From Nemertoderma westbladi (Eukaryota > Animalia > Xenacoelomorpha): 64,000 nucleotides of DNA. The position numbers and the translations under genes were made by a program. The DNA lies in assembly GCA_032718475.1 (NCBI GenBank), contig JAUCBJ010007129.1, positions 12,028-76,027 of the forward strand, in the 5' to 3' direction. Within the stretch, counting starts at the first letter, position 1, and each line of letters opens with the position of its first letter. The notes beneath the pieces are model-generated. The model searched no databases and was not told where the DNA came from. It saw nothing but the letters and a program-made list of their open reading frames with translations. Positions 9,604 through 54,921 of the stretch are shown here, piece by piece.

Positions 9604-9746
9604 CACCGGCACACCTGCTTATGCAGGCACCGACGACATGAACGCCGATTTCTATTCCAATAGAAAGCGACAGTTACGGTAGAAAAGCGTGGAAAATCAC
9701 GCAACTACTGGCTAACAAATTCTGGGAAATATGGCAAAACCATTAT

Positions 9747-19359: not shown

Positions 19360-19442
19360 CCGCTCCCAGAAAATGGGATTTAATTCTATAAAATATAATA
19401 AGTCACAGTCACAAGTCTAAAATATAAAAATACTCTAAACAG

Positions 19443-20993: not shown

Positions 20994-22721
20994 AGCTGCT
21001 ATATGAGTTAATCGATATTATAATTAATTATAATTAGGCTAGCGGTCATCGCTGCCTACCCCTCAATGCCCCCGGACAGCGCAAGCTCCTCAGCGATAAT
21101 GTACTGTTGCCGCTGTGTCTTTCGCCAACGTAGTAGCTACACAACGATAACAATAACCAGCGCGAGTCACTCCACTGTCCGTCCCAAGGGCTCAGAATTA
21201 CTTCAGGTTCTTGCTACAGAAGTAGGGCTACTTTCACAACTGCGACTCGCTACTGCAAACACACTTTAGTAGTAACATTCACCTATAAACGCACAAATTC
21301 CACACAACTGTCACAAATTGTACACATTCGGGCCATTTGTCAGTTAGTCAAGTGCCTTCCAGAATGCCACGTTATTATTATGTATCCCTGGATACTAGCA
21401 GTGTGCTATTTATTCCGTATGCTATTCAATGGGGCAAGCTTTTTATTGTTCTTTTAACTCACTTCTAATTCTAGCGTGGTTGTTGCCATGGTGACATTAT
21501 GGAAAGCTAGCAGTAGAATTAGGGTAATTCTCATGCATACAGATCTGGGATGCTATTTAATAGTAATTCTTTAATTGTCAATATTCCCCTTTATACATGA
21601 TTTTATGAATTTTATCGGCCATTGACTATATATTGGAGATTCTCTCACGCTAATATACTTAATAGGGTGAATCTCCGCTCCCATGATCTATTAATTGATG
21701 GAATTTTGGGAATGTTATAAATTGTATAAAATGACAATTTATCAAATTCATGAGAGGATGTGAATTTAAATTTATTCCCATAAAATTTTATTATTTAATA
21801 TTAAAATAGACAATTTTATTCCAGAACATGTCTGGGGACTGAGATCCTTGATTCTAGGAAATTTGTCCTTTTAAGAGTATCGGTAAGTGCTACGATATCT
21901 TAATCGACTAGAATTTTTAAAGGATCTTTTTTTTAACAGATTTTGATTTATAGATTTTCTTGGTTTACAAACTCCTTAGAGTTTATTTGTATGCATTTAC
22001 TCTATTATAACATTTGTTTTAATAGATTTTTATAAATATTAACTATTTAATATTTAAGATGGGCACCGATTTATTCCAGAACATGTCTGGGGACGTTAAC
22101 CACTGATTCTAGAATTTTGTCTTTCAAGTATATCGGTGGGTGCCGCGATATCTTAATCGACTAGAATTACAGATGGTCAAAGGGTTTAACAGATTTATTT
22201 TGCGTTTTACGCTACTGTTAAAGGGACATCACGCTACTATATGTATTATTTAATATACGGTATGAGAGCAATATTGCAAGAAGCAAAGTCAGTGAGAAGA
22301 GGCAAGTCGTATCCAAGGTCTACCCAGAGCTTGGTTTAGCCGAGACATGAGGATCTGAACTTTGCCTTCCTAATACTCTACTTACCAATAATACTTGAGT
22401 ATAGTAGGAGCTTTATTGTACTTTAATAAGTACGGACATTTCATCTTACTGTAGTCATGTATTTATAATATGATATGGACAGTAAGGAAAGAGAAAAAGA
22501 ATTATTTCTCGCCGTTGCACTAAATATATAATATAGGTAATTAAGTAATAAACACGAATATATATTGCACTAATCTACTAAACAATCGCTAAAATAACAT
22601 CCTACTAAATAAAATTAAAGAAAACGATTATAATAATAAAATTACGTAATAATACATACATAAATATAAAAATAATAAAAATATATAAAATAATGTAGTC
22701 ACACACCCACTCCAGACGCTG

Positions 22722-25700
22722 TTACGTTGGGGAGTCCCTAGATGTTTGTTGGATTAGGGAGGTGGTCGTGGGAAGAGTATCTTGCCTCCCACAGTCTACG
22801 GACAGTTCTCGGTCTCTTTCCAGTAAACATAAACGACTGGGTGATTGAGTTGTTGTGTTTCGAATACAATTCCAGATTTCTTCTTCGTCCTGGAATAGTG
22901 ACGATAGAAACACCAAGTTTGGTTATCGGTGAGGAGATCAGTTGTATTTTCCTCATCGTATTGGTTAATATCGTCATTATCTGAGGAGTATGGTGTTCCC
23001 TCAGTTGTGGTCTCTCCCTCACTGATTTATTCTTCCCATTCACTCACCTGATGTACTTGTTCGTTAGGTAATCTTTCCATGAGTGTTCTACAGGAAGGTC
23101 CAGTGAAGTACCAACCTACTCTCGTTCTTCCCGCATATGTTTGTAATGGTTGCGGTCGAGCAGGCCGTTTTTCTAATGTTTCAAGTGCCTCATGCGCATT
23201 TTGGCCGAACAATATCTGCACCCCTGGGTAGTCGGTATTGAATCTAGGGATATCATGCTGCTGGGTAAAATGGTCTTCATCCCAGTTGTAAGGTTCTACT
23301 TGGCTGGTAGCAAAGTTCTTTATCGCCACCATTTTTACTGACCTTATGCTATGTTCTCCTAGTTCATCCTGGGGAGTGGACAACGCGCCTACATAGTAGT
23401 CTGTAGCTACTGTGGATTTCCAAACCTGCATAATTCCTGAAAGGTTCAACTTAGTTCGGAACTTGGGTTGTCCAGCAAAGATGTCTTCGGCTAGTTCTTT
23501 GTCGATGAATGTTCTTGTGCTGCCGGAGTCAAGGAGGGCGTTTACTATAAAACTCTTACCTTTCCCATGGACTCTCAGCTGCACTACTGGGAATTCCCGG
23601 ATTCCGACGTTGGAAGTTGGCGCTTTCCAAGATGGTTGTTGGTCCGGAATCGTCAGTTTTGCTTCGTTATCGGTTTCAGTCTCATACGTAAGCGCTCGAT
23701 ACACTGCGGTGTTTATCATATAACAGGATTCGTTTTCATCGGAGAATTCGTCCATGTAAAATCCTTCCATCTCAGAGCTGTGGTCAGTGTCGTTCTCATC
23801 ACTGAATTGGACATGTAGTTCGGGCTTACTTACCTGACTCGTGCGGGTTCTGTCAAATTCTGTGTGCAGTAAGACATGATGTTTCGCGCCGCACTTAGCG
23901 CACCTAGCATCTGAGTAACAGGTCTGCCGTTGGTGTCCTCGTCTGAGGCAATTATAACACAACCGCTTATCCGACATGACATCACGTCTATCTTTAAGAG
24001 ATTTCTTTAAGAATTCATCACAACCACTCAAGCGATGGGGCCCGTCGCACAATACACATTTGGGCTTGATGTTACTTACTTTAACCTGTGCTGTGTGGTG
24101 CACACTTGTTCTTTCCTCGGGCTTTCTTCCATGAATTCTCTTAGGAGACGTGGGAGGAGTTGTTGTTACCTGTTCTCTCCTGTCACTGATTCGAAACTTA
24201 TATTTACTTACGTTTTTTTGTGTTTTGTTGACATAGTAAGATCTTTCGGTGTCTTTCCCGCTGTTCTCCTCGTGGGAGGTTTGGCTTTCGCCGTCGTCTG
24301 TATAACACACTGGTGTTACCTTTCTCCTAGAAACGGGTTTTTCACTTACCTCACTTTCAGGAGTCTTCTCTCTAGACTGTTTTAGGAGTTGTAATCTTAC
24401 CTCTCGGTTTAAGAATGACAGAAGGTCCATCATGGTTGGATCTCTATGTTGTTGGTCCATCAAATAGAGAACCTTTTTGTCCCAGCGAGTACCTACTCCA
24501 CCCTTTGGCAAAGCTGATGCTAGGGCTCCTACAACCATAGAATTCTGGTATTCATGAGACTTACCCAACCAGTCTAATTGTCTACAGATCTCCTGAATCT
24601 CATCGGAAAACTCTATAATCCCTCTGCTAATACCTAGCTATGTTAGTCCTATTACCATACCTGATGTTTAGTGTATCCCAAACTTGTCTTAATCCATCTG
24701 GATGTCCAATAAACTTTAACGCCATTAACTTGGGAGGTCCTTCTAAGCACTCGATGAGGAGTCTAAGTTTCTCTCCGTTAGATAGTACAGAGTTCTGTAT
24801 GTTATCTTTATAATATTCATTAAAAGGTAACCATTTCATCTCATCTCCATTGAACTTGACGATCTCTCCCACCTTTACCGCTTGACGGGCTTTGGTTCTA
24901 GCCATTTGACGCGTAAAACTTTCTTGGGCCATCGTATTATTTAATATCGAGTTATCGGTATATAAATTTATCGGATTAGGATCAGGTCTATCTGGAATAT
25001 CATTATCAACAGGTTTATAATTATCCTTAATAGGGTTTACTATAGGAGTTTCTACTTCACTAGCAGTATAGATGCGTGGAGGCTCCACACCTTGCGCATG
25101 AAATACTTCAGACCTAACAGGTTGACACATTGTTACAGGGGATGGTGGTATACCCCTTTGTATATTTACCAATTTATTGCGTTCTAATGCGATACTCTGC
25201 TGCACTTCTTGCAACTCTAACCTACCCTCTCTTACTGTTCCCTTTAACTGCTGAACAGTCCCTTCCAACGCCCGGACTTGCTGGGAGGAACACACACGGT
25301 GTTCCCTCAGCTGACCGAGCAGGAGACCCATCTCCCGCCATCCCTCATCCACCCACTCTACCGCCGAAGCGGGAGCCGCCAACATAGTAGCGGGTAGACG
25401 AGGGACGACGGGCGACAAATCGACAAACCGGAACTGATTCAGGAACTGTCCTACTGGGCACAGGTAGTTTAGTACTGTGCAAAGGGAATTTAGAGTTAGG
25501 TTCTGGAAGTACAGGTGTCTCTATCACAGAGGGGGTGGCTTCGAGAACAGGCCCAATTATTTCAGGCTCATCTACTATAGTAGGGAGTCTTTCTACTCTA
25601 ATAATTTGGTCTGTGTGTTCTGTACTACCTAAGTCTACACTAGCTAGTTGCCTTCTCACAGCTGGGGGCAAATTAGGCAATTTCTGACGGTGGGGCGTTC

Positions 25701-27080
25701 TTCTACATCTGCTGGAACGAGATCTATTTCCTCCGCCTTCAGGATCTGTTGTATCGCCTTCATCAGATGATGTAAATCCCTGTCTCTTGGGAGTAGATCG
25801 ACTTATTATCTGCATCTGACTAGCTGTTATCTGGTTATTTAAGTAGTCTTGCTTCTCTTGAAGATTTTCCAACTCTAGTTGGGTTGTCTCTTCAGATGCC
25901 CTCCGTTCTGCTTTTGCCACTGCCTCTGCCGCCTTTCTTTCAACTTCTGCAGCTGCCGCTGTCGCTTTTCTTTCCGCTTCTACCGCCGCCGCTGCCGCTT
26001 TTCTTTCCGCTTCTACCGCCGCCGCTGCCTCTTTTCTTTCAGCTTCTGCCGCTGCCGATGCCGCTGCCTTTCTGTCTTCTATCTGCTTTTTCTTTAGTTG
26101 CACTTCTTGGACCCTAGCGATGCGGATTCTTTCATCAAATTTAGCTCACTCCGTGGCTAACATTTCCGCATCTAACGAGTCTAACACAAATTTGGCTCCC
26201 TCACTATTAGGGTGAAATCCAGCTAGCCGTCTCCTTAACTCTTTGTCACCTATAAATCGTTGATAGTCCGACAGATAGATGTCAATAGCGTCTTTCTTCT
26301 GAGGTTTCTCTGATGTCGCTTCGCTTTCCACCTGAGAAAAGGTAGCATCTGTTGACTCTCCGTGGGTCGCGCGCTCAGTTAGGGGGTTGTTGAAACAGTT
26401 GTTCCTCTAATCGCTCCAAAGAGCTGAAGAATCCCTGTACATATCCTGCTGCCGACCTCTTCCACACAGCTGGATCTCTAGTGTCCTTTACCACTCCCAT
26501 CCTGTATAAGTCCTCCCAGGCAACTTCCGATAAGTTAAATGGGAGTCCGGGTCCGGGGAAGTTCCATTGCGTCTCGACAATAGACCTTAATTCCTCCATC
26601 GTATATCCCACATAACTGTCCTTGGTCGATCGCTTACTTCTCGCCCAATCGATTTGATGTTCTTCCACCGCAATCAATACTCTAGTGAGTACAGCTCCCA
26701 GAAGAATTAGAAGTGGATCTGGATAAACCGCTTCTGCCATCTTTGCTCCGATCTCGGGTGTCAACTCTACAGTGTCTGAACTACTGGAGTTATCGGGCCG
26801 TTGAGAAATAAGTTCCCGGTTCGGGTGCTGCTGCTGCTGCCTCTTGGTCCCGCTTGACTTGAGCCCTAGTGCCTATGATAGACCAATGGTGCTCTACTAG
26901 CCTAGGGTCTGACACTACTACTGTAGGGATGACCTTTCTTACAGTAGGAGGGGACTTGGACTTTGGTCTCAGACGTTCTATACTCTTAGCTGAGTCCCAG
27001 ATCTTTTTAAGACCCTGTCTAACACTCATTCTAACACTTTCTAAGAGACTATCTGACAGTGTTTGTTTTGTGTCAGACAT
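22722..27080 (-). pseudogene. Gag-protease of B1, fragmented and fused to the last codons of integrase
   Basis: ORFs 26790-27080, 26375-26764, 25345-26103, 24627-25418, 23027-24568. Knuckles CVLCDGPH, CYNCLRRGH, CAKCGAKHH; protease LLDSGS; tail RLCLLERD. Confidence 0.92.
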
Positions 27081-27235
27081 GTTTGATTGTACAGTTGAAT
27101 GCCTACTACTATAACGACAGTTAAAGCAAGTCTAGTAATTCAGTATCAACTGCAAGCCTAGTAATTAATTACCGATACTGTTACTCAGTGTAACGTGATA
27201 TATATACAGATATATAATATGTTAGAATACCGGTA

Positions 27236-27603
27236 TACACTTATAGTATATATAAGAATTATTACAGACTAGAATTAGTCACAGAATACCGGTATATAAT
27301 TTCAGCATAAATTTATATAAATATATATAATAAGCCTACCGTAAATACCAGTATACAGCATACACTTATAGTATATATAAGAATTATTACAGACTAGAAT
27401 TAGTCACAGAATACCGGTATATAATTTCAGCATAAATTTATATAAATATATATAATAAGCCTACCGTAAATACCGGTATACAGCATACACTTATAGTATA
27501 TATAAGTATTTATACAGACTAGGATTAGTCACAGAATACCGGTATATAATTTCAGCATAAATTTATAGAAATAAATATAATAAGCCTATCGTAAATACCG
27601 GTA
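27236..27603. repeat. 125-bp tandem repeat x3 in the 5' leader of B1
   Basis: tacacttatagtatatataag starts at 27236, 27361 and 27486; B2 has a single copy (~49779). Confidence 0.9.
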
Positions 27604-29181
27604 ATGTCAATTATTTTAGAATAACTGAATTTCTGAATTTTAGGGTTACTTTCCTTTACTTTATTACTGTTATTAAGCAGTAGCCCAACTGATATTAAGA
27701 CCTAATTAATGTATAACAGGCCTACTATTTTATAAATCGGTTTGAGTTGATTTATAATATATATATACCCGTATAATGGGTTTTTGTCAATGTTTGAAAT
27801 AAATGTTATTATTTCTGGTGAGGAGTCACTACACAGAAGCTGAACGCTCTCAGTGGAGTGCTTCCTGTTAGACACTAAAACAAATAATTCTACTTTACTA
27901 AGTTACTTATTACTACAAATTACATACAATTACTGTGTTGTGTGAGATTACAATCTCTAAATAAACACCAAAAATTACACATACAAATTTTAGGATAATT
28001 TTACAGGAAATCTACAAACCAGCCTAACAAGGAGTTAGAATTTCTGGTTCTTACAAACGGACAGGAAACTACGGTATTTGATAATAATTAAGCAGTAGTA
28101 AATATATTGCTTTGTCCAGATAAGAAAATACAACCGTCTGATGACTTATAGTCTTTAGCTCTACAGCTCTATAAGTACTACGTTATGTACCCGGAGTGTC
28201 CTTACCTAGAAGTTAATTACCGCAGCCAACCAGAGCTAACGTGCCTATTAACCACTTTACAACACAAATATACTGCCTATACACTAATTACCTTCGGAAA
28301 GTACTGTACACTAAACCCTAAATTAGGTACAAGTACTTATACAACAAATAACCAGCAGTTAAATATACTTATACAGCTAAAAGAACCACGGTATCTGCTG
28401 GAATAACTAGAGCATAAAATCACCAGTCTTTACCTACGCCAAGCAGCCCTGATGTAGTACCGGGGTTAATTTAACTATAACGGTATGTATAACAAGCACA
28501 ATTACTGTAGCAATAAACTTGGGGAGTTATGTAGGTTGCGAATACTCGCATAGACTCGTGAATAATAAATATTACGCTACCCGTGCAGACTACACAAACA
28601 AAATACAGACCAAACGCTGGCAGACTACTATCAAGCCTTAATAAACTACAGTATATGCAGACTCCGAAATGGTTAGTTAGTAGGCGTTCTAACCGAGTAG
28701 TACGACTTATTCTTTTGGGAGGGATTTACCTTACAGCACTGGATGCCCCCACCTTCCTAACTAGTACTTTATCAGACATACACTCTATACACACTGCAAT
28801 CTCTTCAGACCCAACAACAGTCAGACAACAATCCAGCCTACAAATTATTTATACAATCTGAGCAGGCTTACACGCCTTCTGCTCAATATTACTTACAGAT
28901 AAATAAAACTGACAGAAATAAGTAAAATCCCAATAAAAAACCAGGGCTGCAGTCCCTGATTAAATATCAAGACCTACCGGTATATAATTATCAAAATCGA
29001 ATAATACCTGTTCGTACCTGTAAGTACCGGTTCAGGTAGTTGGGCAGTTAGGCCTACAGCTTACCGTTCGACCGGTACCTTCGACTTTATTGCCTACGTT
29101 TAAAACTTTAGCGAACTTTATAGCGAGTTTAAAACTATTAATGTTCTTACAAGAACATTAGACAATTTGTAAAACTATTAA

Positions 29182-30414
29182 TGTTCGCGCTTTTAGACCT
29201 TTAGCAGTTTAACCTGCCAATTTTAATTGTCTTTTTTGTATATCAATTATTTAATGTACTGAAGTTACATCAGCTGAAGCCAGCCTGTGCGCGACCATTC
29301 ACCCACAGTTAAGGGAGACTGGATTCGGATGCTTTGATAGTGATTGCAGTGTAGACCTACTGTATTATTCAATTGATCGTTAATATATAATCTCTGACAA
29401 TATATTTACTTTCGGGGAAATATTAACAGTTCCTTTAGGACGTGGCACTTTAAGTATAAAACAGAGTTATGACTTATACTAATCACAACTGGATGGCTAC
29501 TGAGTTTCGTAAAAAGTGCATTCTTTAGGAGATGCTTTATTAACCTTCACACTACTTCACACGACTTCACACTAGTTCACACTACTGCGCACTGATCTGC
29601 CGACCGTCACTGAATTTGATCATATATAAGGAGGATCGCAACTGACACATGTAGGGATTATGAAATAACATTTAATTCACACAAAAACCACTATAATGTA
29701 AGTCGCAGTTGCTACCGGTAAACCTGTTCCTCTAACCTTTAGTAATCAAGAAGATTGGGGGTTTTATGATTATTCATCGGTATTCTCCAAATATATCAGC
29801 AATATACACCAACATAACACCAATTAATAACAGAATCAAATAATGCGGTGAACAGTCAGTATGTGTTACTTATGCAGTGTTCCATGTGCGGCAATGTTGA
29901 CTTGCGGTGTGATGCGGTGTGTTGCGTAGTTGAATTGTGTTGCTTTTCAGTGATTCAGATATGAAGTATGATTCAGTTAATAGTTTTACTTTCTTGTAAT
30001 AAAAGCCATCTGATGTTTCTGATGTTTAGGTCAAAGTCTGAAACTTCCAACACAGAAGTACAGAAGAATTTCCAAGCAGTTCTCTCGCTCAGAAAGGTAA
30101 ACTAAGACCGTAATGCATTGCGCGGTTTTCCGTAGGCCTCTGTACAAGATAAAATGAAAATCGCTCTGATTAGCTGAGCTGAGCGAGCTGAACAAAGAGA
30201 TGTTCCACGTTTACAGTAAATCAGCTGACAGATTTCGTCATCTGAGTTCCAGTCTTTTAGAGTATTAAGCGCATTGCGGCAGAAAATGGCTTGTTATGTC
30301 CGCTAAAACACCCACACGGTACATTGCGGAGAAAATGGCTTGTTATGTCCGCTAAAACACCTACACGGTATATTGCGGAGAAAATGACTGGTTATATCCG
30401 CAAAAGCTTTTACA
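29182..30414 (-). repeat. 5' LTR of B1
   Basis: Near-identical to 18086-19359, with one fewer 47-bp repeat. Confidence 0.96.
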
Positions 30415-34228: not shown

Positions 34229-35403
34229 TGTTCGCGCTTTTAGACCTTTAGCAGTTTAACCTGCCAATTTTAGTTGTCTTCTTGTTTATAAATCGACTTT
34301 AGCCTAGACCAATTATTTTATGTACTGAAGTTATATCTGCCGAAGCCAGTCTGTGCGCGATCATTCACCCACGGTTAAGGGAGACTGGATTCGGGTGCTT
34401 TGACGTTATTGCGGTGTAGACCTACTGTATTATTCGATTGATCGTTACTATATAATCTCTGACAAATATATTTACTTTCGGGGAAATATTAACAGTTCCT
34501 TTAGGACGTGGCGCTTTAAGTATAAAAACAGAGTTATGACTTATACTAATCACAACTAGATGGCTAATGAGTTTTGTAAATAGCGCATTCTTTAGGAGAT
34601 GCTTTATTATCTGTCACACTACTGCACACGACTTTACACTACTGCACACTGATCTGCCGACCGTCACTGAATTTGATCATATATAAAGAAGATCGCAACT
34701 GACACTTGTAGGGATTATGAAATAGCATTTAATTCACACAAAAACCACTATAATTTAAGTCGCAGTTGCTAGCGGTAAACTGTCCTCTTACCTTCAGTAA
34801 TCAAGAAGATTGGGGGTTTTATGATTATTTATCGGTATTCTCCAAATATAACAACATATCCAACAATATACAACAATTAATAACAGACAGTAAGCAGAAG
34901 TAAATAATGCAGTGAAAAGTCACTGCATTTATTTATTGGTTTAGTATGATATGCAGTGTCCAGCAGGTTCATCAGGTTGATATGACAATATGAGAATAGA
35001 TTTACGTTCCGTAATCAAAGCCATCAGATCTTTAGGCAAAGTCTGAAACTTCCACCACAGAAGTAACAGAAGATTTCCAAGCAGTTCTCTTCGCTCAGAA
35101 AGGTAAACAAAGACCGTAATGCATTGCGCGGTTTTACATAGGCCCTTGTCCAACATAAAATGAAAATCGCTCTGATTGGTTGAGCCGAACAAAGAGAGGT
35201 TCCACGTTTACAGTAAATCAGCTGACAGATTTCGTCATCTGAGTTCCAGTCTTTTAGAGTATTAGGCGCATTGTTGGCTTGTTATGTCCGCTAAAGCACC
35301 TACACGGTACATTGCGGAGAAAATGGCTTGTTATGTCCGCTAAAGCACCTACACGGTATATTGCGGAGAAAAATGACTTGTTATGTCCGCAAAAGCTTTT
35401 ACA
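34229..35403 (-). repeat. 3' LTR of B2
   Basis: Near-identical to 53747-54921; PPT GGGAGCGG on the minus strand at 35404-35411. Confidence 0.96.
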
Positions 35404-35481
35404 CCGCTCCCAGAAAATGGGATTTAATTCTATAAAATATAAAAAATCACAGTTTCTAAAATATAAAAATACTCTAAACAG

Positions 35482-38400
35482 TTAGTCCGTCTTACGCGAA
35501 CGGCGTTTACGCAGTTTTTTGAGGCTAGCAAGAGTCCTTTTCTCTTTGGGGCAAGCCACTTTACTAGGAGGGCTATAACTCCTGGGTGAAGGGTGCAATA
35601 CAATTGCATCGGAAGGTTTAGGGTTACGGTCGGTGTATCCGCCGGTCGAGGTACCCGGTTGATTGATATCAACCTCAGCGGAGCGAGGTTGAACAACCCC
35701 CAGAGCGCGTTTCAAGACAGCAGCTCTTACTGGTCCCTGACGAGTCGTCTGCACGAGAGCGGTAGGTGGACCGTGAGTAGTGAGAAATTTCCTCAGTTTG
35801 ATGGTTCTTTCTAACTCGCGTTCTCGGGCTCTATATTCATAGGGTCGTCTATGAACTTCCTGTAGTTCTGGATGCGAGTTGATGAACAAGTCACCATATT
35901 CAGGATCTTGATGGATGAAGTTGATCAAGTTATAGGAATTAAGATCATTGGGATTAATGTTCCTGAGATATTTACGAACAAATTTGGTCGAAATATTCTC
36001 GCCAACACGCTTCATTAGTTCGTAACTCGGTGTGCGAGATTTTTGTTCAACGGACGCGAATAGATACGGGTGAAACGCATAAACTCACTCATAAGCATGT
36101 CCAGGGTAATATCCAGACGTGACTCACAATGTAGATCCGCGTTCGCTTCCCAGGCTCGAATATAGTGTAAGGTAATCATTTCATCTACGCTTTCCAGATC
36201 TCGGTTGAAAGGGCAATCAAAACTTGCATGTCCTTTAAACTGACAATGATGGCATTGAGTCATAAATTGGGGGCAGACTGCAAAAATGTGCAAGTTATTG
36301 AGTCTACAATATGCACAATAGATCTCCATCGTAGGTTGTTCATGGAAGTAGGAACAGGGTACGTTGGAGTCCACCGGGGTGAAATGGTCTCGAGATGCAC
36401 ACAATCGACAACGTTTCCTAGAAACATAATTGGCATGCCGATAATCGTAAGCGGTGAGGCATTGTGGACCTTGATACCATTCCAGGACGTAGTCATTGTC
36501 ACTGCTCCGGGGCGCTGTGGGCTGGATCTCCTCGGATTCTAAGCATATTGGTTCGTCTTCCAATCGCATAGCTGAGGTAGGTGTAGCTGTCTCCTCAAGC
36601 GAACCCAGTGTCTGAACTTCCACGATAGAATAACCCGTGGGGATTCGGGGTCTTTGTATAACAGAGGAATGTAAGTTCTGTATACCAACGTCCTTGAAAA
36701 TGGCGAATCCAGCGCTGTCTAACTTCTCAGCAGCTGAGTCTCTTAGGCTGAGCTTGGTCAGAGCGCGGTCCTTGAACTGACTATCAACGTTACGGAACGG
36801 AGTCAGAAAGCGCCTAAAGCATTCGAAGCGGATGAATTTATTGTGTTCATCTAGCTTGGCGAGTTTGGTTCCAAGTATCAAGGGATGGGTGCGTATAGTA
36901 CGACTGCACACATCGGCTAGCCAACCGGCAAGTGTGGCGTTCTCGAAGATAGTGTATATAGCTAATGAGGGACAAAGGGGAACACTCATGAAGCTATACA
37001 CGACGCCAGGTGTGGTCAATGGTCCATCGAAGTATAATAGAGAATAATGATCTCCATATACTTGTTGATAGTTGATAGGGTTTCCGACTTTGAAATTCCA
37101 TCTGTATTCTTGGAAGGCAAGATGTCCGATGGATGTTCGTTGTACTTTATTGATGCCGCTGGGTGTATTGGCATACATAGTTCGGAAGAAACCTCGGCCT
37201 TCTGCCCAGGGAGCAATCAGCTGGGTGTCTACGAAAGGATATGGGATATTCTCCATATTCCTGAAGTCGTTTTGGAGATCTCCATAAACAGCTGAGCCGA
37301 ATTTAAAGGATTCTTTCGTTAAACAACATCTCGAGCACTGGCTGGGGTAACATCGATCCATCTATACCCATGGCCAGTTTACGCTCAGTATCGGTGACGT
37401 AACGCTGTGCGAGTTCGAATTGTCCATGTCGGAGTTTCTTTTGTATCTCGGTGAGAGTCTCAAAGGAATAATCAATCACATCGGAACACGCTCGAGTAAA
37501 CACGTGAGTAGAACCAGCTAGCCCTCGTATATGTATCATGCGCGACGCGCATGATACATATACGAGGGCTAGCTGGTTCTACCCACGTAGTTCCCAGTTC
37601 TCCAACAGGAATGCTACCTTCGTTATCGTAAGTGACAACTCCATACATTTCGATAACGTTAAGAGTTTCGTTCCACTCTTTAGTGGCGTTTTCTAGGGTC
37701 ATCCCCACCGGATGCCACAAGGTGGCACATTCGCTAGCGTTAGGTAGATCCCTATACTTCAGATATTGTGTAGTATACGTCTCTACATCTCCATATCGTT
37801 GTATTCTCTCTTCCTCGAATAATACGTCGAGATTCCAGTGGACTAATCGAGTTTCAATAAATCCATCGAGATTATACGGAGGCATTATATCCTTCTCTAT
37901 TCTGGAAACATTGTAGGGCTTTCTGAATGAGTTTACTTTCACTAACTGATCCAGATGTTTCTGCAGTTGTTCAAGTTCGACAAGATCGAGGGGATTTATT
38001 AGTGGTAGAAACCTTAGACTATGTGTAGGATCTTCCGGTATTACCATATAATATTGAGTTAGATTGACATAATAAGGGTGGTCTTTGATCCCATAAAACG
38101 AGTTCGGTAAAGGTCTAGCGCGTATGTTGACCTCGCGTACCATACGACGGACAAGATCTGCTCGATTGTCCGGAGGTTCAACGAGTATACCGTCGATACG
38201 AGCGGCCTCGATTGGCGGACGTTGCAACATAGGAGCGTCAGCGATAAGATCACGAGATCTTAGGTTGATATCAACCGGTTGGGGTTGTACCGTGGCGAAG
38301 AGTTTGTCTCCGAAATGGGGAACCATCGAGGGATGACGGATGGTTTTGGAATAGAGATCAGTCATAAGGATTTGAGCTTCAGGTTGGGCTAAAGCTGCTT

Positions 38401-39778
38401 CTTCTCTCTCACCCATTTCGATGTGTTTCTCCTCGAGCTGATTTTCCTCCGCTTGTCATTGGAAGCGTTCATCTAAAAACTCTTGTAGAGAATAGGTTCG
38501 TCCAAGTTCGATGTCTTCCTCGAGGTTTTGGATTTCTCGATCGAACTGGGGTAAGGCCAATTCCTTTACTGCTTGGACTTGCTGCTGCAACTTACGTTTC
38601 TCCAAACAATCATAAGTTCCTTTTCCGATCTTCTGTTGAATAGCGTCTAACGCGTTTCGTACAACGCTCTTCTCGACTTCGGTGACGGGTTGTATCGGGG
38701 TCAAACCGGGACGATTATACGGGTTGAACGGCGAGATTAGATGTCCGCGTCCTAATCCGGCTAGGTAGGATGGGCGAATATCTAGAGAGCCCACTACCGG
38801 AGTGCCACCGATTAATTGTTCGGGTAACACGAGATCTTTGAACAGCGAGTACAGTTCAGGAGGATCCGTTATACTATTACGATCAAGAGTTTGAGGTCTC
38901 ACTAAGGAATGAGGAGGTCTGACTGAGTATTCTGGAACTCTGATCATCGGTTTATTTAAGGATCGTTTGAGTCGAGCGAGCGTAGGTGATACGTCGAACA
39001 AGTTTCGCTCGAAACTCCCGTAAGTATAGCGAGTAAAACTGTGTTTAGCGCAACGTCTCCGCGGATGTTTATGTCTTTCCATTTGCTGGTTGGGTCTAGG
39101 GCATTCATCGCAATAATACCAAAGACGCACGTCCTGTAGGGGAAACGCGGGTGATCATTCTCCAGTTTTACAATATTCCTCCATTTGTTCGAAGCTTTCC
39201 GGGACAACAGGTAGCAGTCGATCGGCGGTAAGATAAATCATAGTGAAATAGAGCCGTTTGAGTTCCATCATAGGGTCATGATGTATACCTTGAGGATATC
39301 GAATTTCTAGATTTTGTTGACTGGCTATATTGAGATATGTTTCTCTCAAGAATTCCAGATATTCGTTGAAGTTACTGCGTTTATCTGGCTCTTCAACGTC
39401 TTCTCTTTCGAGTTGGTTGTGAATAGAATTTTCGTGTTCTATTCTCGGTTTATCGTTCCGACTCCGCTGGGTATGATATTTAAATATAACCATGTCCCTT
39501 TCGGTGTCTACATCGTCCGTATCGTGTAAATCGATAGGATGACCAGTAGTTAAAAAGTCCATATACGTACCATTACAATGCGTATAGCGAGCGATGAATT
39601 TTCTATAGTCTAATTCACGCGTGAGCTGTTACTTTGACATTGGCGGTTCGATATAACGGCCATCGTCTTCCGTAGTGGGTGGACTAGCGTCGCCGCGTAT
39701 TAAACTATCAACAAACGCTTGCAATGGTAGGGTATATCGCTCCCTGATACCAAGATCATCTTCTATCAACTCAGTCAT
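35482..39778 (-). pseudogene. ORF2 of B2 (~1430 codons, disrupted): CxxC..CxxH module, DEDDy-like exonuclease, Cys/His knuckle cluster, basic tail
   Basis: Fragments 39155-39562, 38456-39130 and 37472-38416 share one frame from the ATG at 39778; then 37303-37539, 36015-37361 and 35482-36015. Motifs YDNEG, KFGSAVYGD, FVDT, YTIFE, CRLC..H, CAYC..H..C, CHHCQFKGHASFDC. Confidence 0.88.
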
Positions 39779-41489: not shown

Positions 41490-42650
41490 TTACGTTGGGG
41501 AGTCCCTAGATGTTTGTTGGATTAGGGAGGTGGTCGTGGGAAGAGTGTTTTGTCTTCCATAGTTTCCGGATAGTTCTCTGTCTCTTTCCAGTAAACATAA
41601 ACGACCAACTGGGCGATTGAGTTGCTGTGTTTCGAATACAATTCCAGGTTTCTTAAAGTTACGTCGCATGACGACGAGTTCTACCGATCGCACTAAACCA
41701 TCATCGGATATATGAGTCTCGATGATACGACCTGTCTGCCACCGCTTACGTAGAAGATCTGATTCCACAATAAGGACCATGTCTCCGGCGCTGACGTTTT
41801 CTTGCTGCGCAAACCACTTGGTTCGAAGTTGTAGCGTAGGCAGATAATGTTTTTCGAAATGGTCAGCGAAACGACGGGATAATAACTGCATAAGTTGCCA
41901 AGTTTGTCGGCAGTATTCGTCTCCGTCCATGATTTCCGATCGTGGGAGCATGGCTACAGGTTTCTTCAGTAGGAAATGCGTGGGTGTTAGCGCTTCTAGG
42001 GAGTCGGGACTCGATGAGACTGGCATAAGCGGTCTCTCGTTAAGATAGGCGGCAATTTCTTCCATTAACGTCCGCAAAAGTTCGTCGGTGAGATACGCGC
42101 GGCACGGCACTATAAAGTGAAATGCGGTCTTCACGCTCCTTATTAATCTCTCCCAACTTCCTCCCCACCAAGGGACGTCGGCGGCGTTGAAGGTCCAGCT
42201 AGATGCTGTTACCCTTAGCTGATCGTCCACCTGTCTTTGGTTCCAATCTTTAATGTAAGCCTTGATCTCATTATTGGTGCCAATGAAGTTCGTTCCCTTA
42301 TCAGATCTCATCGTGTTGCTAGTTCCAAAGCGAGCGATCTGTCGGCGTAAACTCAGTATGAAGCTGTTGGTAGATAGATCATTCACCATATCTAGATGGA
42401 TCGCTCTACAAGTCAAACAGACAAAGATGACACACCATTGCTTGACTATAGTCCTAGCACGATAGACTTCAATAGGGCCAAATAAATCCACACCGGTATT
42501 AGTAAAGGGTGGTTCATAGAAGCTTACTCGTTCCCTAGGTAATTCTGCCTCTCGCTGTGTTAAAGGCCTACTGAATGCTTTCCTACAGGGTATACAGTTC
42601 CTAAGAACTTGGTTCAGAGCTCTACGGGGTTTATGGAAATAATAGCGAGT
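41490..42650 (-). CDS. Integrase of B2 (DDE core and C-terminal tail)
   Basis: GVDLFGP, RAIHLD, SDKGTNF, WGGSWERLI, LTPTHFL, YLPTLQ.R.KW. Confidence 0.95.
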   Translation of the reverse strand, partial: TRYYFHKPRRALNQVLRNCIPCRKAFSRPLTQREAELPRERVSFYEPPFTNTGVDLFGPIEVYRARTIVKQWCVIFVCLTCRAIHLDMVNDLSTNSFILSLRRQIARFGTSNTMRSDKGTNFIGTNNEIKAYIKDWNQRQVDDQLRVTASSWTFNAADVPWWGGSWERLIRSVKTAFHFIVPCRAYLTDELLRTLMEEIAAYLNERPLMPVSSSPDSLEALTPTHFLLKKPVAMLPRSEIMDGDEYCRQTWQLMQLLSRRFADHFEKHYLPTLQLRTKWFAQQENVSAGDMVLIVESDLLRKRWQTGRIIETHISDDGLVRSVELVVMRRNFKKPGIVFETQQLNRPVGRLCLLERDRELSGNYGRQNTLPTTTSLIQQTSRDSPT

Positions 42651-44965
42651 TCAAATTTCGCTAAGAACTCGTTCTCTACCAGCATGGTAAAGCCTACTGT
42701 GAACATCTACAATCATCATGATTTGTATTTCAAGATTTCTAATGAGTATGGGAAACTTAATGTCAAAGGATAGTGGAGCATTAGTTAGTCTCCCTCCAAC
42801 ACGTATTAAACCATCTATCATTGTGCTAGAGAAACGATCCCTTAAGCGCGTCTGTGGATTTCTCAACAACAGGAAATACTTATCGGAATCTTCATAGCAT
42901 TGCAGGAGTCTCAGTATCTGCTTATTGGTTTCTTCATGCTCCTGGTAACTGATCTTCTCCTTCAGAAACCTATCCGATACTTTGTATTTGGGAAGATCTT
43001 TAATAGCAAGGACCTGCTCGGATGTCAGTGGAGCGGTATCACTAGCGATCTTCGTCCTGGAGTAGTGATGATGGAAGCATCGCTTCAAATACACGACGGC
43101 CTTACAATGCCGATTCCAGGAGCTATAGTGATTTATCGCTCTCTGCAGGAGAGGTGAGAGTCCCTGCGAGACGTCTGGTGTTCCAGATTTCCAGTCTCTT
43201 TCTCTAATTTCCACAACAGACTTATTTGTGGCGGGGGAGTTTAGATCCACAGCGTTATCCCCGGAAATGTGTAGTACAGACAGATCTATCACGGGTTTAA
43301 ATAACTTTGATTTACTCGTCCGGGTTTTGGGTTTGACTTTCTCCGCTCCCTTGGCTTGTCTAATCTCAGCCGTGGTGAGATGAGGAGGCCATTCATCCTC
43401 TTCTTTACTTAGGAAGTCGGGTCCACCTAACCAGTCTGGAGTATCTATCAGTTCTTGAGGAGTTGCTCCTCTGCAGGCGATGTCGGCTGGATTAATCGTC
43501 CCAGGGCAATGTCTCCATTGATCTACATTAGTGCGACTATGTATAATGGCTACTCTGTTGGTAACGAAGATGCTGAACTGACAGACTTCATTGGTTATAT
43601 ACTCCAAAACGAGTAAAGCATCAGTCCAATAGACAGTTTTCTCCAGTGGATAGTCGATCTGTTCTGTTACATTCCGGCCGATGGCTGTAGCGTATAGAGC
43701 CGCCTTTAACTCCGCTCGAGGAACTCGTAGTTTGTTGTTTATCAAGGCCTTAGAGGTAACCAAGGCAACTTTAATTCCATCCGGAGTTTCAACCCTCAGG
43801 TAGGCTACTATACCTATTCCCATATCGCTGGCGTCTCCAAACACATGGAGTTGATAGGAATACGTGGGGAGAACGTGACCAAAATATGAATGGGAAATCG
43901 TAAAGTTCTCGATGGATGGTAGATAATCTTCCCATTTCATCCACTTCTTTAGTAGTTCTCCCTTAAGTGAATCGTCCCACGAGTGGTTTTCAAGCCACAT
44001 TTGTTGCACTAAACTCCGGGCAACCAATATAACTGGGCTAATAAATCCCAACGGATCGAAATAAGTGCTCAGGATACTTAGACAAATCCGTTTAGTTCTA
44101 ACTGGATTATCTCGCTTTTTTAGCTGGAAAAACAAGATATCTCTCTCCGTGTCCCATTTTAAACCAAGTGTTTTGGTTTCCGGAAGATCATCCTTGATGA
44201 GGTCAAGATCTTTAACACCTCGGTCTTCTACCGGGATCGATTCCAGAAACTCACGGGAGTTACTAGTGAATTTGGTTAGCCGAAATCCACCACGTTGCAA
44301 GCACTCCACCATTCCCTTGGCAACATCAGTGGCTTCTTCCACCGATGGGAGGGACTTTAAATTGTCGTCCATGTATATATCCCCTTTGATGTTGTCGATA
44401 ACTGCTTTAGAGAAGGCATCTCGGTTGTCATCAGCAGTGGTACGCACTACTGAACAAGCGTTCGAGGGGCTCGAGATGACTGGATGGGATGGACTGGACT
44501 GGATGGTCATCCAGTACTCCACCAGTTTTAGGTTGAGATCTCCTTCAGGCCACCACAGAAATCGTAGGCTGTCTCGATCCCTATCCAGCGCCTTAACTTG
44601 TAAGAACATGCCTTCTATATCCGAAGCAAAAGCGATAGAATATTGCCGTAATCTTAAGAGTATTCCCAACAAGGATTGGAGTAAGTTGGGTCCCGGCAAC
44701 AACTCAGAGTTAAGGGATTGGCCCATGTAAAGGGCGGAGCCGTCAAATACTACCCGGACTTCGTTGGGTTTACCGGGTTTGGGAACATAATGATGTGTTA
44801 GATAATACGTTCTCTCAGTTATGGGTGTTTCTTCCAGTACTCGCTCCGCATATCCCTTATCGATGAATTTCTTCAGCTGGGTCTTATACATCTCTTTAGC
44901 TGAAGCATTGGCCGTAAGACGCCGATGTAGTTGTGCGATTCTCTTCTCCGCTAAGGGTCGATTAT
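42651..44965 (-). pseudogene. RT and RNase H of B2
   Basis: VRVVFDGS, DIEGMFLQ, IYMDD, LHVFGDAS, PRAELKAA, WTDA, NPADIACRG; stops and a frameshift at the borders. Confidence 0.95.
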
Positions 44966-47900
44966 TTATAAAGTTGGGTTCTCGCCGTTGGAACGGAAGA
45001 CCAATCTCATATCTACCTTGATCTTTAAGAAAACGGGTAGTCGTTTCCTGAATCTGCTTGGCTCTTTCCTCCTCGACAGATAGGCCTTATCGTAGGAGTT
45101 AGGGTCTACGGCATCTTGAGTAAATAATCTTACGGCGTGTTCATCACGAATCTTATCGTGGTATCGATCTATCACCTCATTTATTTCGTCGTTGTAGTCG
45201 AATTGTCCGCCATGATTGATGAGATGGCACAGGTTCACTTGGTTTCGCCAAGTTTCATTTTGGGTGAGGAGGTCGATTGTATTTTCCTCATCAAACAATT
45301 GGTTAATATCGTCATTATCTGAGGAGTAGGGTGTTCCCTCAGTTGTGGTCTCTCCCTCACTGATTTCTTCTCCCCATTCACTCACCTGATGTACTTGGTC
45401 GTTAGGTAATCTTTCCATGAGTGTTCTACGGGAAGGTCCAGTGAAGTACCAACCTAATCTCGTTTTTCCCACATAGGTTTGTAATGGTTGTGGTCGAGCA
45501 GGCCGTTTTTCCAATTTCTCTAGTGCCTCATGCGCATTTTGGCCGATCAATATCTGTACCCCTGGGTAGTCGGTGTTGAATCTAGGGATATCATGCTGCT
45601 GGGTAAAATCGTCTTCATCCCAGTTGTAAGATTCTACTTGGCTGGTAGCAAAGTTCTTTATCGCCACCATTTTTACTGACCTTATGCTATGTTCTCCTAG
45701 TTCATCCTGGGGAGTGGACAACGCGCCAACATAGTAGTCTGTAGCTACTGTGGATTTCCAAACCTGCATAATTCCTGAAAGGTTCAACTTAGTTTGGAAC
45801 TTGGGTTGTCCAGCAAAGATGTCTTTGGCTAGTTCTTTGTTGATAAATGTTCCTGTGCTGCCGGAGTCCAGGAGGGCGTTTACTATAAAACTCTTACCTG
45901 GCCCATGGACTCTCAGCTGAACTACTGGGAATTCCCGAATTCTGACGTTGGAAGTTGGCGCTGTCCAAGATGATTGTCGGTCCGGAATAGTCGATTGGAC
46001 TTCATTATCGGTTTCAGTCTCATACGTAAGCGCTCGATACACTGCGGTGTTTATCATATAACAGGATTCGTTTTCGTCGGAGAATTCGTCCGTGTAAAAT
46101 CCTTCCATCTCAGAGCTGTGGTCAGTGTCGTTCACATCACTGAATTGGACATGTAGTTCGGACTCACTTACCTGATTCGTGCTGGTTCTTTCAAATTCTG
46201 TGTGCAGCAAGATATGATGTTTCGCGCCGCACTTAGCACACCTCGCGTCGGAGAAACAGGTTCGCCGTTGGTGTCCTTGTCTGAGACAATTATAACACAA
46301 CCGCTTATCCCACATGACATCACGTCTATCCTTTAGGGATTTCTTCAAGAATTCATCACATCCACTTAAACGATGGGGCCCGTCGCACAATGCACATTTG
46401 GGTTTGATGTTACTTACTTTAACTTGTGTGGTGTTCTGCACACTTGTTCTTTCCTCGGGCTTTCTTCCATGAATTCTCTTAGGAGACGTAGGAGGAGTTT
46501 TTGTTACCTGTTCTCTCCTGTCACTGTTTCGAGACTTAGATTTACTTACGTCTTTCGGTGTTTTGTTGACATAGTAAGATCTTTCGGTGTCTTTCCCGCT
46601 GTTCTCCTCGTGGGAGGTTTGGCTTTCGCCGTCGTCTGTACAACACACTGGTGTTACCTTTCTCCTAGAAACGGGTTTTTCACTCACCTTATTTTCCGGT
46701 GTCTTCTCTCGGGACTGCTTTAGGAGCTGTAATCTTACCTCTCCATTTAAGAATGATATGAGATCAGCCATGGTAGGGTCTCTTTGTTGCTGGTCCATCA
46801 TATAGAGCCCTCTTTTGTCCCAACGCGTACCTACTCCACCCTTCGGCAAAGTAGATGCCACAGCTCCAACAACCATAGAACTCTGATGTTCATGAGACTT
46901 ACCTAGCCAATCTAACTGTCTACAGATCTCCTGGATCTCATCGGAAAATTCTATAATCCCATTCTAAAATCCATCTGGATGTCCAATAAACTTTAACGCC
47001 ATTAACTTGGGAGGTCCTTCCAAGCACTCGATGAGGAATCTAAGTTTCTCTCCGTGGGATAGTACGGAACTCTGTATGTTATCTTTATAATATTCATTAA
47101 AAGGTAACCATTTCATCTCATCTCTGTTGAACTTAACGATCTCTCCCACCTTTACCGCTTGACGGGCTTCGGTTCTAGCCATTTGACGTGTAAAACTTTC
47201 TTGGGCCATTGTATTATTTAATATCGAGTTATCGGTATATAAATTTCTCGGATTATGATCAGGTCTATATGGAATATCATTATCAACGGGTTTATAATTA
47301 TCCTTAACAGGGTTTACTATAGGAGTTTCTACTTCACTAGCAGTATAGATGCGCGTAGTCTCCACACCTTGCGCATGAAATACTTCCAAACCACACCTTG
47401 AAACCACAGCATGAAATACTTCAGACCTAACAGGTTGACACATTGTTACAGGGGGTGGTGGTATACCCTTTCGTATATTTACTAACTTATCGCGTTCTAA
47501 CGCGATGCTCTGCTGTACTTCTTGTAACTCTAACCTACCCTCTCTTACTGTTCCCTTTAACTGCTGAACAGTCCCTTCCATCTCTCGGACCTGCTGGGAG
47601 GAACGCAAGCGCTGTTCCTCCAATTGTCCGAGCAGGAGATCCATCCCCCGCCGTCCCTCATCCACCCACTCTACCGCCGAAGCGGGAGCCGCCAACATTG
47701 TAGCGGGTAGACAAGAGATGACGGGCGACAAATCATTGATGTCTCGCTCGGCGTCCAGGACTGGGACTGATTCAGGGGCTATTCTACTGGGCACAGGTAG
47801 TTTAGTACTGTGCAAAGGGAATTTAGAGTTAGGTTCTGGAAGTACAGGGGTCTCTATCACAGAGGGGGTGGCTTCGAGAACAGGCCTAATTATTTCCTGC

Positions 47901-49632
47901 TCATATACTATAGTAGGGAGTCTTTCTACTCTATTAATTTGGTCTGTGGGTTCTATACTACCTAAGTCTACACTAGCTAGTTGCCTTCTCACAGCTGGGG
48001 GCAAATTAAGCAATTTCTGCCAGTGCAGCACCCTTCTACATCTGCTGGAACGAGATTTATTTCCTCTACCTTCCGGATCTGTTGTATCGCCTTCATCAGA
48101 GGATGTAAATCCATGTCTCTTGGGAGTAGATCGACTTATCATCTGCATCTGAGAAGCTGTTCTCTGTTTATTTAAGTAGTCTTGCTTCTCTTGAAGATTT
48201 TCCAACTCTAGTTGGTCTGTCTCTTCAGATGCCCTCTGTTCTGCTGCTGCCACTGCCTCTGCCGCCTTTCATTAAAACTTCTGCAGCTGCCGCTGTCGCT
48301 TTTCTTTCTGCTTCTGCAGCTGTGGCTGTCGCTTTTCTTTCCGCTTCTGCCGCCTTTCTTTCCACTTCTGCAGCTGTCGCTGTCGCTTTTCTTTCCGCTT
48401 CTACCGTCGCTGCTGCCGCCTTTCTTTCAGCTTCTGCAGCTGCCGATGCCGCTGCCTTTCTGTTTTCTATCTGTTTTTTCTTTAGCTGCTCTTCTTGGAC
48501 TCTAGCGATGAGGATGCTTTCATCAAATTTAGCGTGCTCCGTGGCTAACATTTCCGCATCTAATGAGTCTTACACAAATTTGGCACCCTCACTATTAGGG
48601 TGAAGTCCAGCTAGCCTTCTCCTTAACTCTTTGTCACCTATAAATCGTTGATAGTCCGACAGATAGATGTCATTGGCGTCCTTCTTCTGAGGTTTCTCTG
48701 ATGTAACTTCGCTTTCCACCTGAGACAAGGTAGCGTCTGTTGATTCTCCGTGGGTCGCGCGCTCAGTTAGCTGAATTTTCCATTGTGTCGTTCCTTGGAC
48801 TTTAAGACTCACCTGTTGGAACCAAGTCTTTATGGCAACTTGCAACGACGTGTCTTGGCTTCTCTTCGAGGCTTCCTCAAAGGCGGAAAGGATTTGTCTG
48901 ATCCTTAAGATTCGTTCTCGAACTTGATAAAGCAGCTATCCCTGCTCTTGAGGTCCTTGACGTTGTTGACACAGGTGTTCCTCTAAGCGCTCCAAAGAGC
49001 TGAAGAATCCCTGTACATATCCTGCTGCCGACCTCTTCCACACAGCTGGATCTCGAGTATCCTTTACTACTCCCATCCTGTATAAGTCCTCCCAGGCAGC
49101 TTCCGATAAGTTAAACGGGAGTCCGGGTCCGGGGAAGTTCCATTGCGTCTCGACAATAGACTTCAGTTCCTCCATTGTGTATCCCGCATAACTATCCTTG
49201 GTCGATCGCTTACTTCTCGCCCAATCGATTTGATGCTCCTCCACCACGATCAATACTCTAGTGAGTACGGCTTCAGGAAGAATTAGAAGTGGATCCGAAT
49301 AAACCGCTTCTGCCATCCTTGCTCCGATTTCGGGTGTCAACTCTAGTGTCTGAACTACTGGAGTTATCTGGCTGTTGAGAAATAAGTTCTCGGTTCGGGT
49401 GTTGCTGCTGTTTACCAGCTGCCTCTTGGTCCCGCTTGACTTGAGCCCTAGTGCCTATGGTAGACCTTTGGTGCTTTACTAGCCTAGGGTCTGATACTAC
49501 TACTGTAGGGATGACCTTTCTTACATTAGGAGCGGACTTGGACTTTTGTCTCAGATGTTCTGCACTCCTGTCTGAGTCGCTGACTGTTCTTTCTAGGAGA
49601 CTATCTGACAGAGTTTGCTTTGTGTCAGCCAT
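44966..49632 (-). pseudogene. Gag-protease of B2, fragmented
   Basis: Same motifs as B1 gag (three knuckles, LLDSGS, AAEAERKA repeats), spread over several ORFs. Confidence 0.93.
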
Positions 49633-50522
49633 GTTTGACTGTACAGTTGAATGCCTACTACTATAATGACAGTTAAAGCAAGTCTAGTAATTCAGTATCC
49701 ACTGTAAGCCTAGTAATTAATTACCGATACCGTTACTCAGTGTAACGTGATATATATACAATATATTAAAATACCGGTATACACTTATGGTATATATAAG
49801 TATTATTATAGACCAGGATTAGTTACAAAATACCGGTATATAATTTCAGCTTAAATTTATCGAAATAAATATAATAAGCCTATCGTAAATACCGGTAATG
49901 TCAATTATTTTATAATGACTGAATTTCTGAATTTTAGGGTTACTTTCCTTTACTTTATTACTGTTATCAAGCAGTAGTCCAACTGATATTAACCCATTAA
50001 GTCCTAAGGTCTACATTTGTAGACCCATGCAATATGGTGCTCTCAATTAAAAGCTGTACCAATTTATTTAGTATTTTCACTATAAATCAGACTTAGAGGC
50101 ATGGGAGTACTATTTAAAGTAAATTTTAGCCCTCATGTTCGCAATACTAACATCTGACAAAAGCTCAATTTTAGTGAATTTATGCAAAAAGAGTACGAGT
50201 CAATTCAACTCTAATTTTAGGACGAAAGTTGCCTCATGTGACTTGGAGATGCAAATATTATCATCCCTGATAATTTCTGAACATATAAATGAATTATGAA
50301 GCTCCCAACAACATGTAATTAGAATTCGTGATGTCCTGAATGAGCAAGTCTACAAATGTAGACCTTAGGACTTAAGGGGTACAAATATCACTGAAATTAC
50401 TGTAGTACAGTATATACTGTAATTTCAGAAGACATTTCATACAGGAATATGGATACAGGATACAGGGGCTCATAATTTCACCCGACATAGAGTAGGTACT
50501 GTACAGTGTACAGTCGGGCACT

Positions 50523-53746: not shown

Positions 53747-54921
53747 TGTTCGCGCTTTTAGACCTTTAGCAGTTTAACCTGCCAATTTTAGTTGTCTTCT
53801 TGTTTATAAATCGACTTTAGCCTAGACCAATTATTTAATGTACTGAAGTTATATCTGCCGAAGCCAGTCTGTGCGTGATCATTCACCCACGGTTAAGGGA
53901 GACTGGATTCGGGTGCTTTGACGTTATTGCGGTGTAGACCTACTGTATTATTCGATTGATCGTTACTATATAATCTCTGACAAATATATTTACTTTCGGG
54001 GAAATATTAACAGTTCCTTTAGGACGTGGCGCTTTAAGTATAAAAACAGAGTTATGACTTATACTAATCACAACTAGATGGCTAATGAGTTTCGTAAATA
54101 GCGCATTCTTTAGGAGATGCTTTATTATCTGTCACACTACTGCACACGACTTTACACTACTGCACACTCTTCTGCTGTCCGTCACTGAATTTGATCATAT
54201 ATAAAGAAGATCGCAACTGACACTTGTAGGGATTATGAAATATCATTTAATTCACACAAAAACCACTATAATTTAAGTCACAGTTGCTACCGTTAAACTG
54301 TCCTCTTACCTTCAGTAATCAAGAAGATTGGGGGTTTTATGATTATTTATCGGCATTCTCCAAATATAACAACATATCCAACAATATACAACAATTAATA
54401 ACAGACAGTAAGCAGAAGTAAATAATGCGGTGAAAAGTCAGTTTATTGGTTTAGTATGATATGCAGTGTCCAGCAGGTTCATCAGGTTGATATGACAATA
54501 TGATAATAGATTTACGTTCCGTAATCAAAGCCATCAGATCTTTAGGCAAAGTCTGAAACTTCCACAACAGAAGTAACAGAAGATTTCCAAGCAGTTCTCT
54601 CGCTCAGAAAGGTAAACAAAGACCGTAATGCATTGCGCGGTTTTACATAGGCCCTTGTCCAACATAAAATGAAAATCGCTCTGATTGGTTGAGCCGAACA
54701 AAGAGATGTTCCACGTTTACAGTAAATCAGCTAACAGATTTCGTCATCTGAGTTGCAGTCTTTTAGAGTATTAGGCGCATTGCGGCAGAAAATGGCTTGT
54801 TATGTCCGCTAAAGCACCTATACGGTACATTGCGGAGAAAATGGCTTGTTATGTCCGCTAAAGCACCTACATGGTATATTGCGGAGAAAAATGACTTGTT
54901 ATGTAAGCAAAAGCTTTTACA
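53747..54921 (-). repeat. 5' LTR of B2
   Basis: Direct repeat of 34229-35403. Confidence 0.96.

Follow-up and report, generated by a model that had tools for sequence, protein, structure and literature searches.

Two divergent BEL/Pao retrotransposon families of Nemertoderma westbladi share a second open reading frame with a predicted DEDDy-like exonuclease domain

Two families of BEL/Pao LTR retrotransposons, A and B, lying in one 64,000-nucleotide stretch of Nemertoderma westbladi DNA (the window, to which all positions refer), carry homologous and collinear second open reading frames (ORF2) as separate ORFs behind pol. The N-terminal part of ORF2 is under purifying selection in family B. 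We tentatively propose that the two families share a captured exonuclease of the WRN/Mut-7 type, whose predicted activity is directed in trans at the 3' ends of RNA, with host silencing small RNAs as the likeliest targets.

LTR retrotransposons seldom carry additional enzyme genes, and a study of rotifer elements could not decide whether extra ORFs help the element (PMC5408684). Here, ORF2 has lasted across two families whose divergence equals that between unrelated BEL elements from separate animal phyla, with part of it under purifying selection. The intact natural copy in family A suits direct assay.

RESULTS

Layout of the window

Several LTR retrotransposons lie nested in the window: family A on the forward strand, two copies of family B (B1 and B2) on the reverse strand and a third element on the forward strand.

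944..10025 (+), gag-pol of A (BEL/Pao), rearranged at its 5' end, where 1258-2573 repeats at 5134-6449, with a frame change near 7834-7930 and a stop gap at 9603-9642
10685..13831 (+), ORF2 of A, intact, 1,048 aa counted from the first ATG
14721..15339 (+), putative LTR of A, present once in the window, limits inferred
17912-60997 (+), third LTR element, in which gag- and protease-like frames were made out by eye, but neither pol nor ORF2
18086..30414 (-), B1, with two LTRs (K2P 0.029) and a 5-bp target duplication
34229-54921 (-), B2, 20.7 kb
34229..35403 (-), 3' LTR of B2, TG...CA, with a 5-bp target duplication, K2P 0.020 against the 5' LTR
35482..39778 (-), ORF2 of B2, ~1,400 codons, with three stops and three frame changes
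41490..49683 (-), gag-pol of B2 (BEL/Pao), broken
53747..54921 (-), 5' LTR of B2, pairing with the 3' LTR at 34229..35403

B1 lacks pol and the middle of ORF2 (equivalent to 35833-38419 in B2) and retains the start and end of ORF2. Both B copies are inserted into the third element, one of them in its 5' LTR and the other ~3.8 kb further on, which may point to a preferred target or to local hopping. At up to 20.7 kb, B elements exceed the 4.2-10 kb given as usual for BEL/Pao elements in a survey (PMC3118150). The 4-kb leader of B2 contains tandem repeats of 52 and 12 nt (50843-52167), and two MITE-like long inverted-repeat elements of ~1 kb each lie at 32292-33339 and 58543-59580. The region separating RNase H from integrase in A includes ~300 aa of repeat-rich, low-complexity sequence (7834-8900, +); in B this stretch is much shorter. 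A motif of ~21 nt occurs four times in A (+), at 7948 (the RNase H-integrase junction), 10310 (before ORF2), 13850 (just after ORF2; found by eye) and 14405 (3' region), the copies at 7948 and 14405 being identical at 21/21 positions.

Both families have the Gag-protease-RT-RNase H-integrase order of BEL/Pao, and Pfam domains of BEL type were found in each (Peptidase_A17 in both families, DUF1759 in A, DUF5641 in B). By their nearest relatives, too, both families belong to BEL/Pao, in a tree built without a non-BEL outgroup, and PF05380 is present in all 120 listed homologs. RT/RNase H and integrase are 43% and 44% identical between A and B. Gag and protease regions are 21-30% identical, in line with the high divergence of the Gags described in an earlier note made from the sequence. 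Paired TG...CA LTRs with a target duplication are present in B1 and B2, and a single putative LTR in A, which was placed by the 7-nt purine-rich run that also precedes the B2 3' LTR and by a depth peak in one run over public contigs. The earlier note saw no similarity between the LTRs of A and B, and none was detected (local score 29, shuffle median 30, with the A LTR inferred from one copy). At the 3' LTR junction the two are alike in a purine-rich run and the first LTR bases (14714-14726 in A, 35404-35410 in B2), the LTRs being otherwise unrelated.

No TGG-type primer site was seen by eye directly after the LTR in B1 (29181, -), B2 (53746, -), the putative LTR of A (15340, +) or the third element (30786, +); an offset or decayed site would escape such inspection. 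A tRNA-like stretch, with D-arm and T-arm boxes by eye, lies inside the putative A LTR (14838-14926, +) and has no copy in B. It was called by neither ARAGORN nor Rfam at standard thresholds, and its folding z was -0.5. No tRNA or Rfam family at all was found at standard thresholds, and relaxing ARAGORN gave 224 calls, that is, noise.

Homology of ORF2 between families A and B

A tblastn search of the window with A ORF2 gave three collinear matches, all within 39382-36615 (-) of B2. With A numbered from 10574, these cover residues 573-803 (31% identity, E 7e-25), 96-226 (30%, E 1e-8) and 371-511 (25%, E 2e-4). Their bit scores were 103, 50.8 and 36.6, compared with a maximum of 31.6 among 30 shuffled queries. 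The pairwise alignment of A and B that the earlier note had proposed as a check is thus significant, and the nine pairs of collinear blocks it had read from the translations are all present and in order, seven of them inside the tblastn matches. The fourth pair lies in a separate B frame at 37306-37542; the ninth, though weak, keeps its place in the order (26% identity in 34 aa, pairwise E 7e-4).

The B2 copy of ORF2 is dead, a state that the earlier note did not mention. Stops are found at 39631, 39157 and 38458 and frame changes near 37500-37590, 37305 and 36015-36084, with a short inverted duplication (37502..37588) at one of the frame changes. A 1-base indel at 10678, common in other A copies, is upstream of the ORF2 ATG.

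A predicted DEDDy-like exonuclease domain

12014..12778 (+), likely DEDDy/WRN-type 3'-5' exonuclease domain of A, with D471/E473 in motif I, D561 in motif II and Y666-x3-E670 as likely motif III
36870..37720 (-), exonuclease-like domain of B, in three frames, with motif I around 37627-37619, the Asp of motif II at 37280, Tyr at 36956 and Glu at 36944

The word exonuclease in the earlier note is an interpretation rather than an observation. Three weak signals agree in pointing to the DnaQ/DEDD superfamily. Firstly, an Atlas feature search with residues 330-780 of A returned 24 of 30 matches in the PF01612 set, the best named one being 'Werner syndrome-like exonuclease' at 0.91 (the top three were unnamed). 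A score of 0.9 is reached in this search by 4-10% of shuffled proteins, and the piece from B had no match in it. Secondly, a DnaQ model matched the motif I region of A at E 0.038. Thirdly, the A/B profile scored 26.6 against 13 bacterial RNase D/PolA domains, while 150 column shuffles scored no higher than 17.7; this score used alignment A1, in which, as in A3, MAFFT misplaced one B piece, and the register alignment was hand-windowed.

The candidate residues D471, E473, D561, Y666, E670 and D680 of A are all conserved in B. In the core of the hhalign alignment the motif II Asp falls in register with RNase D (pairwise p 8e-4), and the motif I D-x-E is kept in both families, its register with RNase D being seen in the extended, low-confidence part of the hhalign alignment. 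The hhalign probability was 11-24%, and the extended alignment sets another Tyr, without an acid, at motif III; global hhalign was without success. The order of conserved blocks follows the published WRN/Dada alignment by eye (PMC3706591 Figure S1, from the available part of that paper). Motif III reads Y-x3-E in A and B, against the canonical Y-x3-D, and ORF2 is therefore filed as DEDDy-like, not as a canonical DEDDy member.

Against this assignment, Pfam PF01612 had no match in ORF2 at E<=1 and an HMM of 14 bacterial RNase D/PolA domains found neither ORF2. AlphaFold models of ORF2 had a pLDDT of 32, with uninformative fold searches from them. The ORF2 domain very probably has a DEDDy fold, and the predicted enzyme may well be catalytically active despite the Glu in motif III.

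Zinc fingers and knuckles

11129..11221 (+), N-terminal C-x2-C...C-x2-H finger of A, shared with B
39041..39112 (-), N-terminal C-x2-C...C-x2-H finger of B, shared with A
36213..36410 (-), three Cys/His knuckles of B, with spacings 2-4-9, 2-5-4 and 2-4-4

The N-terminal Cys/His finger common to A and B had been missed in the earlier note, which described a knuckle cluster added by B after the exonuclease. The cluster exists, with three units in B and none at that place in A, but loss in A would explain this as well as gain by B. Only the last unit has canonical CCHC spacing (C-x2-C-x4-H-x4-C), and the Pfam zf-CCHC_3 match (E 0.004) is below cut-off.

ORF2 was also considered as an envelope gene, and this was rejected: it has no membrane segment, the peak 19-residue hydropathy being 1.38 in A and 1.54 in B.

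Selection on ORF2

dN/dS was calculated from B1 against B2. Since B1 lacks the exonuclease and knuckles, the comparison covers the N-terminal 390 codons and the last 115 codons of ORF2. Over the N-terminal 390 codons dN/dS was 0.17 (dS 0.25, dN 0.043; Fisher p 2e-16), and the two wrong frames over this region gave 1.4 and 1.7. Elsewhere in the two copies, dN/dS was 0.24 for Gag-protease and 0.48 for the Gag N-terminus. The last 115 codons of ORF2 were neutral (1.11). Purifying selection thus acts on the N-terminal part of B ORF2. The earlier note claimed retention of ORF2 by purifying selection and named dN/dS near 1 among B subfamilies as a refutation; the claim withstands this check over the 390 codons, the tail being neutral.

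Public DNA contigs lend indirect support, through gap-free pieces and the positions of variants. Contigs ~81% alike cross B ORF2 without gaps (802 nt at 38150-38951, 151 differences, 0 gaps), and a piece over B motif III is also gap-free (243 nt at 36812-37049, 44 differences), the B pieces being the 32 best of many thousands. ORF2 indels numbered 0 among the best 12 of 34 in the A contig comparison and 0 among the best 12 of 174 in that of B. Among the best-supported variant places listed, third positions make up 9/13 in A ORF2. On the other side, they make up only 6/12 in the B exonuclease-knuckle frame, and two divergent contig pieces over the A exonuclease have 4 and 5 gaps.

Joints that delete the exonuclease occur in DNA contigs of both families, two in A (10824-12857 and 10844-12969) and five in B (that of B1 included), so that not every copy keeps the exonuclease. 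Four B joints share nearly the same breakpoint (38413-38418) and differ at their other ends; the ends do not read GT-AG.

Descent of ORF2

Trees were built from 120 related polyproteins gathered with A as query, none of them known to be from this host. FastTree joined A and B with support of 1.0 for RT/RNase H (122 rows) and 0.997 for integrase (103 rows), and an IQ-TREE mixture model of A, B and 40 of the 120 made them sisters at 100/99. The end branches of A and B, the only rows from this host, are the two longest (1.17 and 1.36, against a median of 0.4). The sister grouping in both trees fits one old capture on the stem of A and B, and we consider it probable that both inherited ORF2 from a single capture. 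Of the old capture described in the earlier note, homology and age are supported and a single event is probable; the 'conserved lineage trait' of that note would apply to two families only, in one genome and on two long branches.

It is unlikely that each family acquired the ORF on its own, or that the two exchanged it, out of a pool common to the elements of the host. At least two independent gains of DEDDy ORFs, and their sharing between element classes, are described for rotifers in the available text of PMC5408684, and host sampling or long branches may lie behind the A+B clade. However, the divergence of ORF2 (25-31%) resembles that of Gag (21-30%), its position behind integrase is the same in A and B, and their sister grouping persists under the mixture model.

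No similarity to ORF2 was found in the 120 related polyproteins or in 79 metagenome loci with related integrases, 15 of which reach at least 3 kb past the integrase. Of 16 long downstream ORFs, the scan covered 11, which were BEL gag or pol in ten cases and DUF3504 in one. Searches of 5.8 billion proteins (near lengths only) and 1.84 billion representatives gave no ORF2 homologs, nor did solved structures (PDB sequences), viral contigs or metagenome contigs, and a plasmid search gave one match at E 4; transposon ORFs of animals are poorly represented in all these collections. PHROGs gave weak unknown families only.

DISCUSSION

Possible roles of the ORF2 protein

Since ORF2 forms a frame of its own, at a distance of 0.66 kb from the end of pol in A and 1.7 kb in B, it is likely made from its own RNA, presumably a subgenomic one. 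We envisage a WRN/Mut-7-type 3'-5' exonuclease with zinc fingers, in which the fingers and the B knuckles would hold single-stranded RNA for the nuclease; working in trans on RNA 3' ends, most likely those of host silencing small RNAs, it would blunt the small-RNA defence. The joints that remove the exonuclease in both families are as expected of a product supplied in trans, or of a dispensable one. In cells, the closest relatives of the DEDDy/WRN fold include Mut-7 and Nibbler, which trim small RNAs, as well as EXD1, which is inactive, and zinc knuckles bind single-stranded RNA; this kinship and the knuckles favour a counter-silencing nuclease. Mut-7 and EXD1 are also named in the available text of PMC5408684. 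Small RNAs have about an even chance of being the substrate if the enzyme is active, and a nuclease with such targets would represent retrotransposon-encoded counter-defence in an animal.

The main rivals are an enzyme that trims RNA or primer of the element itself and a dead scaffold. In the former, which is possible though doubtful, an enzyme of the same fold and origin would work inside the replication particle on nucleic acid of the element, trimming its cDNA ends, a primer or the 3' end of the genomic RNA, and this would point to a new step in LTR replication. Such trimming is proposed, in the available text of the respective papers, for rotifer DEDDy ORF3s (PMC5408684) and Dada transposons (PMC3706591), and the missing TGG-type site directly after the LTR in B1, B2 and the putative LTR of A suggests that priming may be unusual. 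However, the third LTR element also lacks a primer site and yet has no ORF2, a convincing self-priming partner was not found, ORF2 is unfused to Gag-Pol, and related elements from other animals show no ORF2 in the 79 loci searched.

A weak or dead RNA-binding scaffold of exonuclease fold, like Maelstrom or EXD1, that helps to export or package RNA or lures silencing factors away as a decoy is an unlikely reading. The Glu for Asp in motif III (or no acid at all), the share of the domain in the protein (about a quarter of 1,048 aa) and the extra knuckles in B would suit it, whereas the motif I and II acids and Tyr-x3-Glu are kept across ~30% identity, and rotifer ORFs that also swap Asp for Glu are considered possibly active in the available text of PMC5408684. 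Least likely of all is a chance motif match in an ORF2 that is not an exonuclease. The sequence-profile and fold searches, all blank or weak, would suit it; against it, three weak signals converge on one superfamily and the conserved blocks keep the published WRN/Dada order by eye.

The counter-silencing nuclease could be extended to a broader scheme, which we regard as improbable as a whole: an entire envelope-less BEL/Pao clade would long have possessed a 3'-5' exoribonuclease of modular build, guided by zinc fingers and variant in its active site, that suppresses piRNA/siRNA silencing in trans, and this would allow both families to attain high copy numbers and would shelter deleted derivatives.

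Comparison with known systems

BEL/Pao elements of cnidarians, echinoderms and molluscs have the same domain order as A, with RT/RNase H 38-43% identical to it, and show no ORF2-like sequence among the 120 proteins and 79 loci (15 extending at least 3 kb past the integrase). In a literature search, largely without subscription papers, no BEL/Pao element was found described with an exonuclease ORF. In C. elegans, some Cer elements reportedly carry an RNase D-like domain and a tRNA-like RNA; if true, this lowers the novelty of ORF2. The term exonuclease is absent from the main text, as available, of the BEL/Pao survey PMC3118150.

Extra DEDDy ORFs have been described in LTR elements of rotifers and in Terminons (PMC5408684, PMC6431247, PMC5718144, PMC6338049, all cited from their available text). 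As described there, the ORF3 of the bdelloid LTR retrotransposons Juno and Vesta and of Terminons is likewise a separate, DEDDy-like ORF behind pol, with no transmembrane part and one Asp replaced by Glu (PMC5408684, PMC6431247); the likeness to A/B ORF2 is one of description. The rotifer elements, unlike A and B, are not BEL/Pao, and their motif reads DEED, whereas the Glu of A and B sits in motif III. Their extra ORFs show no significant departure from neutrality in the text available (PMC5408684), in contrast to the dN/dS of 0.17 in the N-terminal part of B ORF2.

The DEDDy domain of Dada DNA transposons, WRN-exo and Mut-7 share the block order of ORF2 by eye, most clearly around motif II (PMC3706591, available part). 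In Dada the domain lies inside the transposase and keeps all four acids, whereas A and B have a separate multi-domain ORF of 1,050-1,400 aa. The nematode belpaoviruses Cer13 and Atlas are likewise BEL/Pao elements with extra coding capacity behind integrase, but the available text describes this as a phlebovirus-like envelope within the polyprotein (PMC9094657), and ORF2 has no membrane segment. What is distinct in A/B ORF2 is its size, the shared finger, the knuckle module, the motif III Glu, the measured selection and its survival across a deep split.
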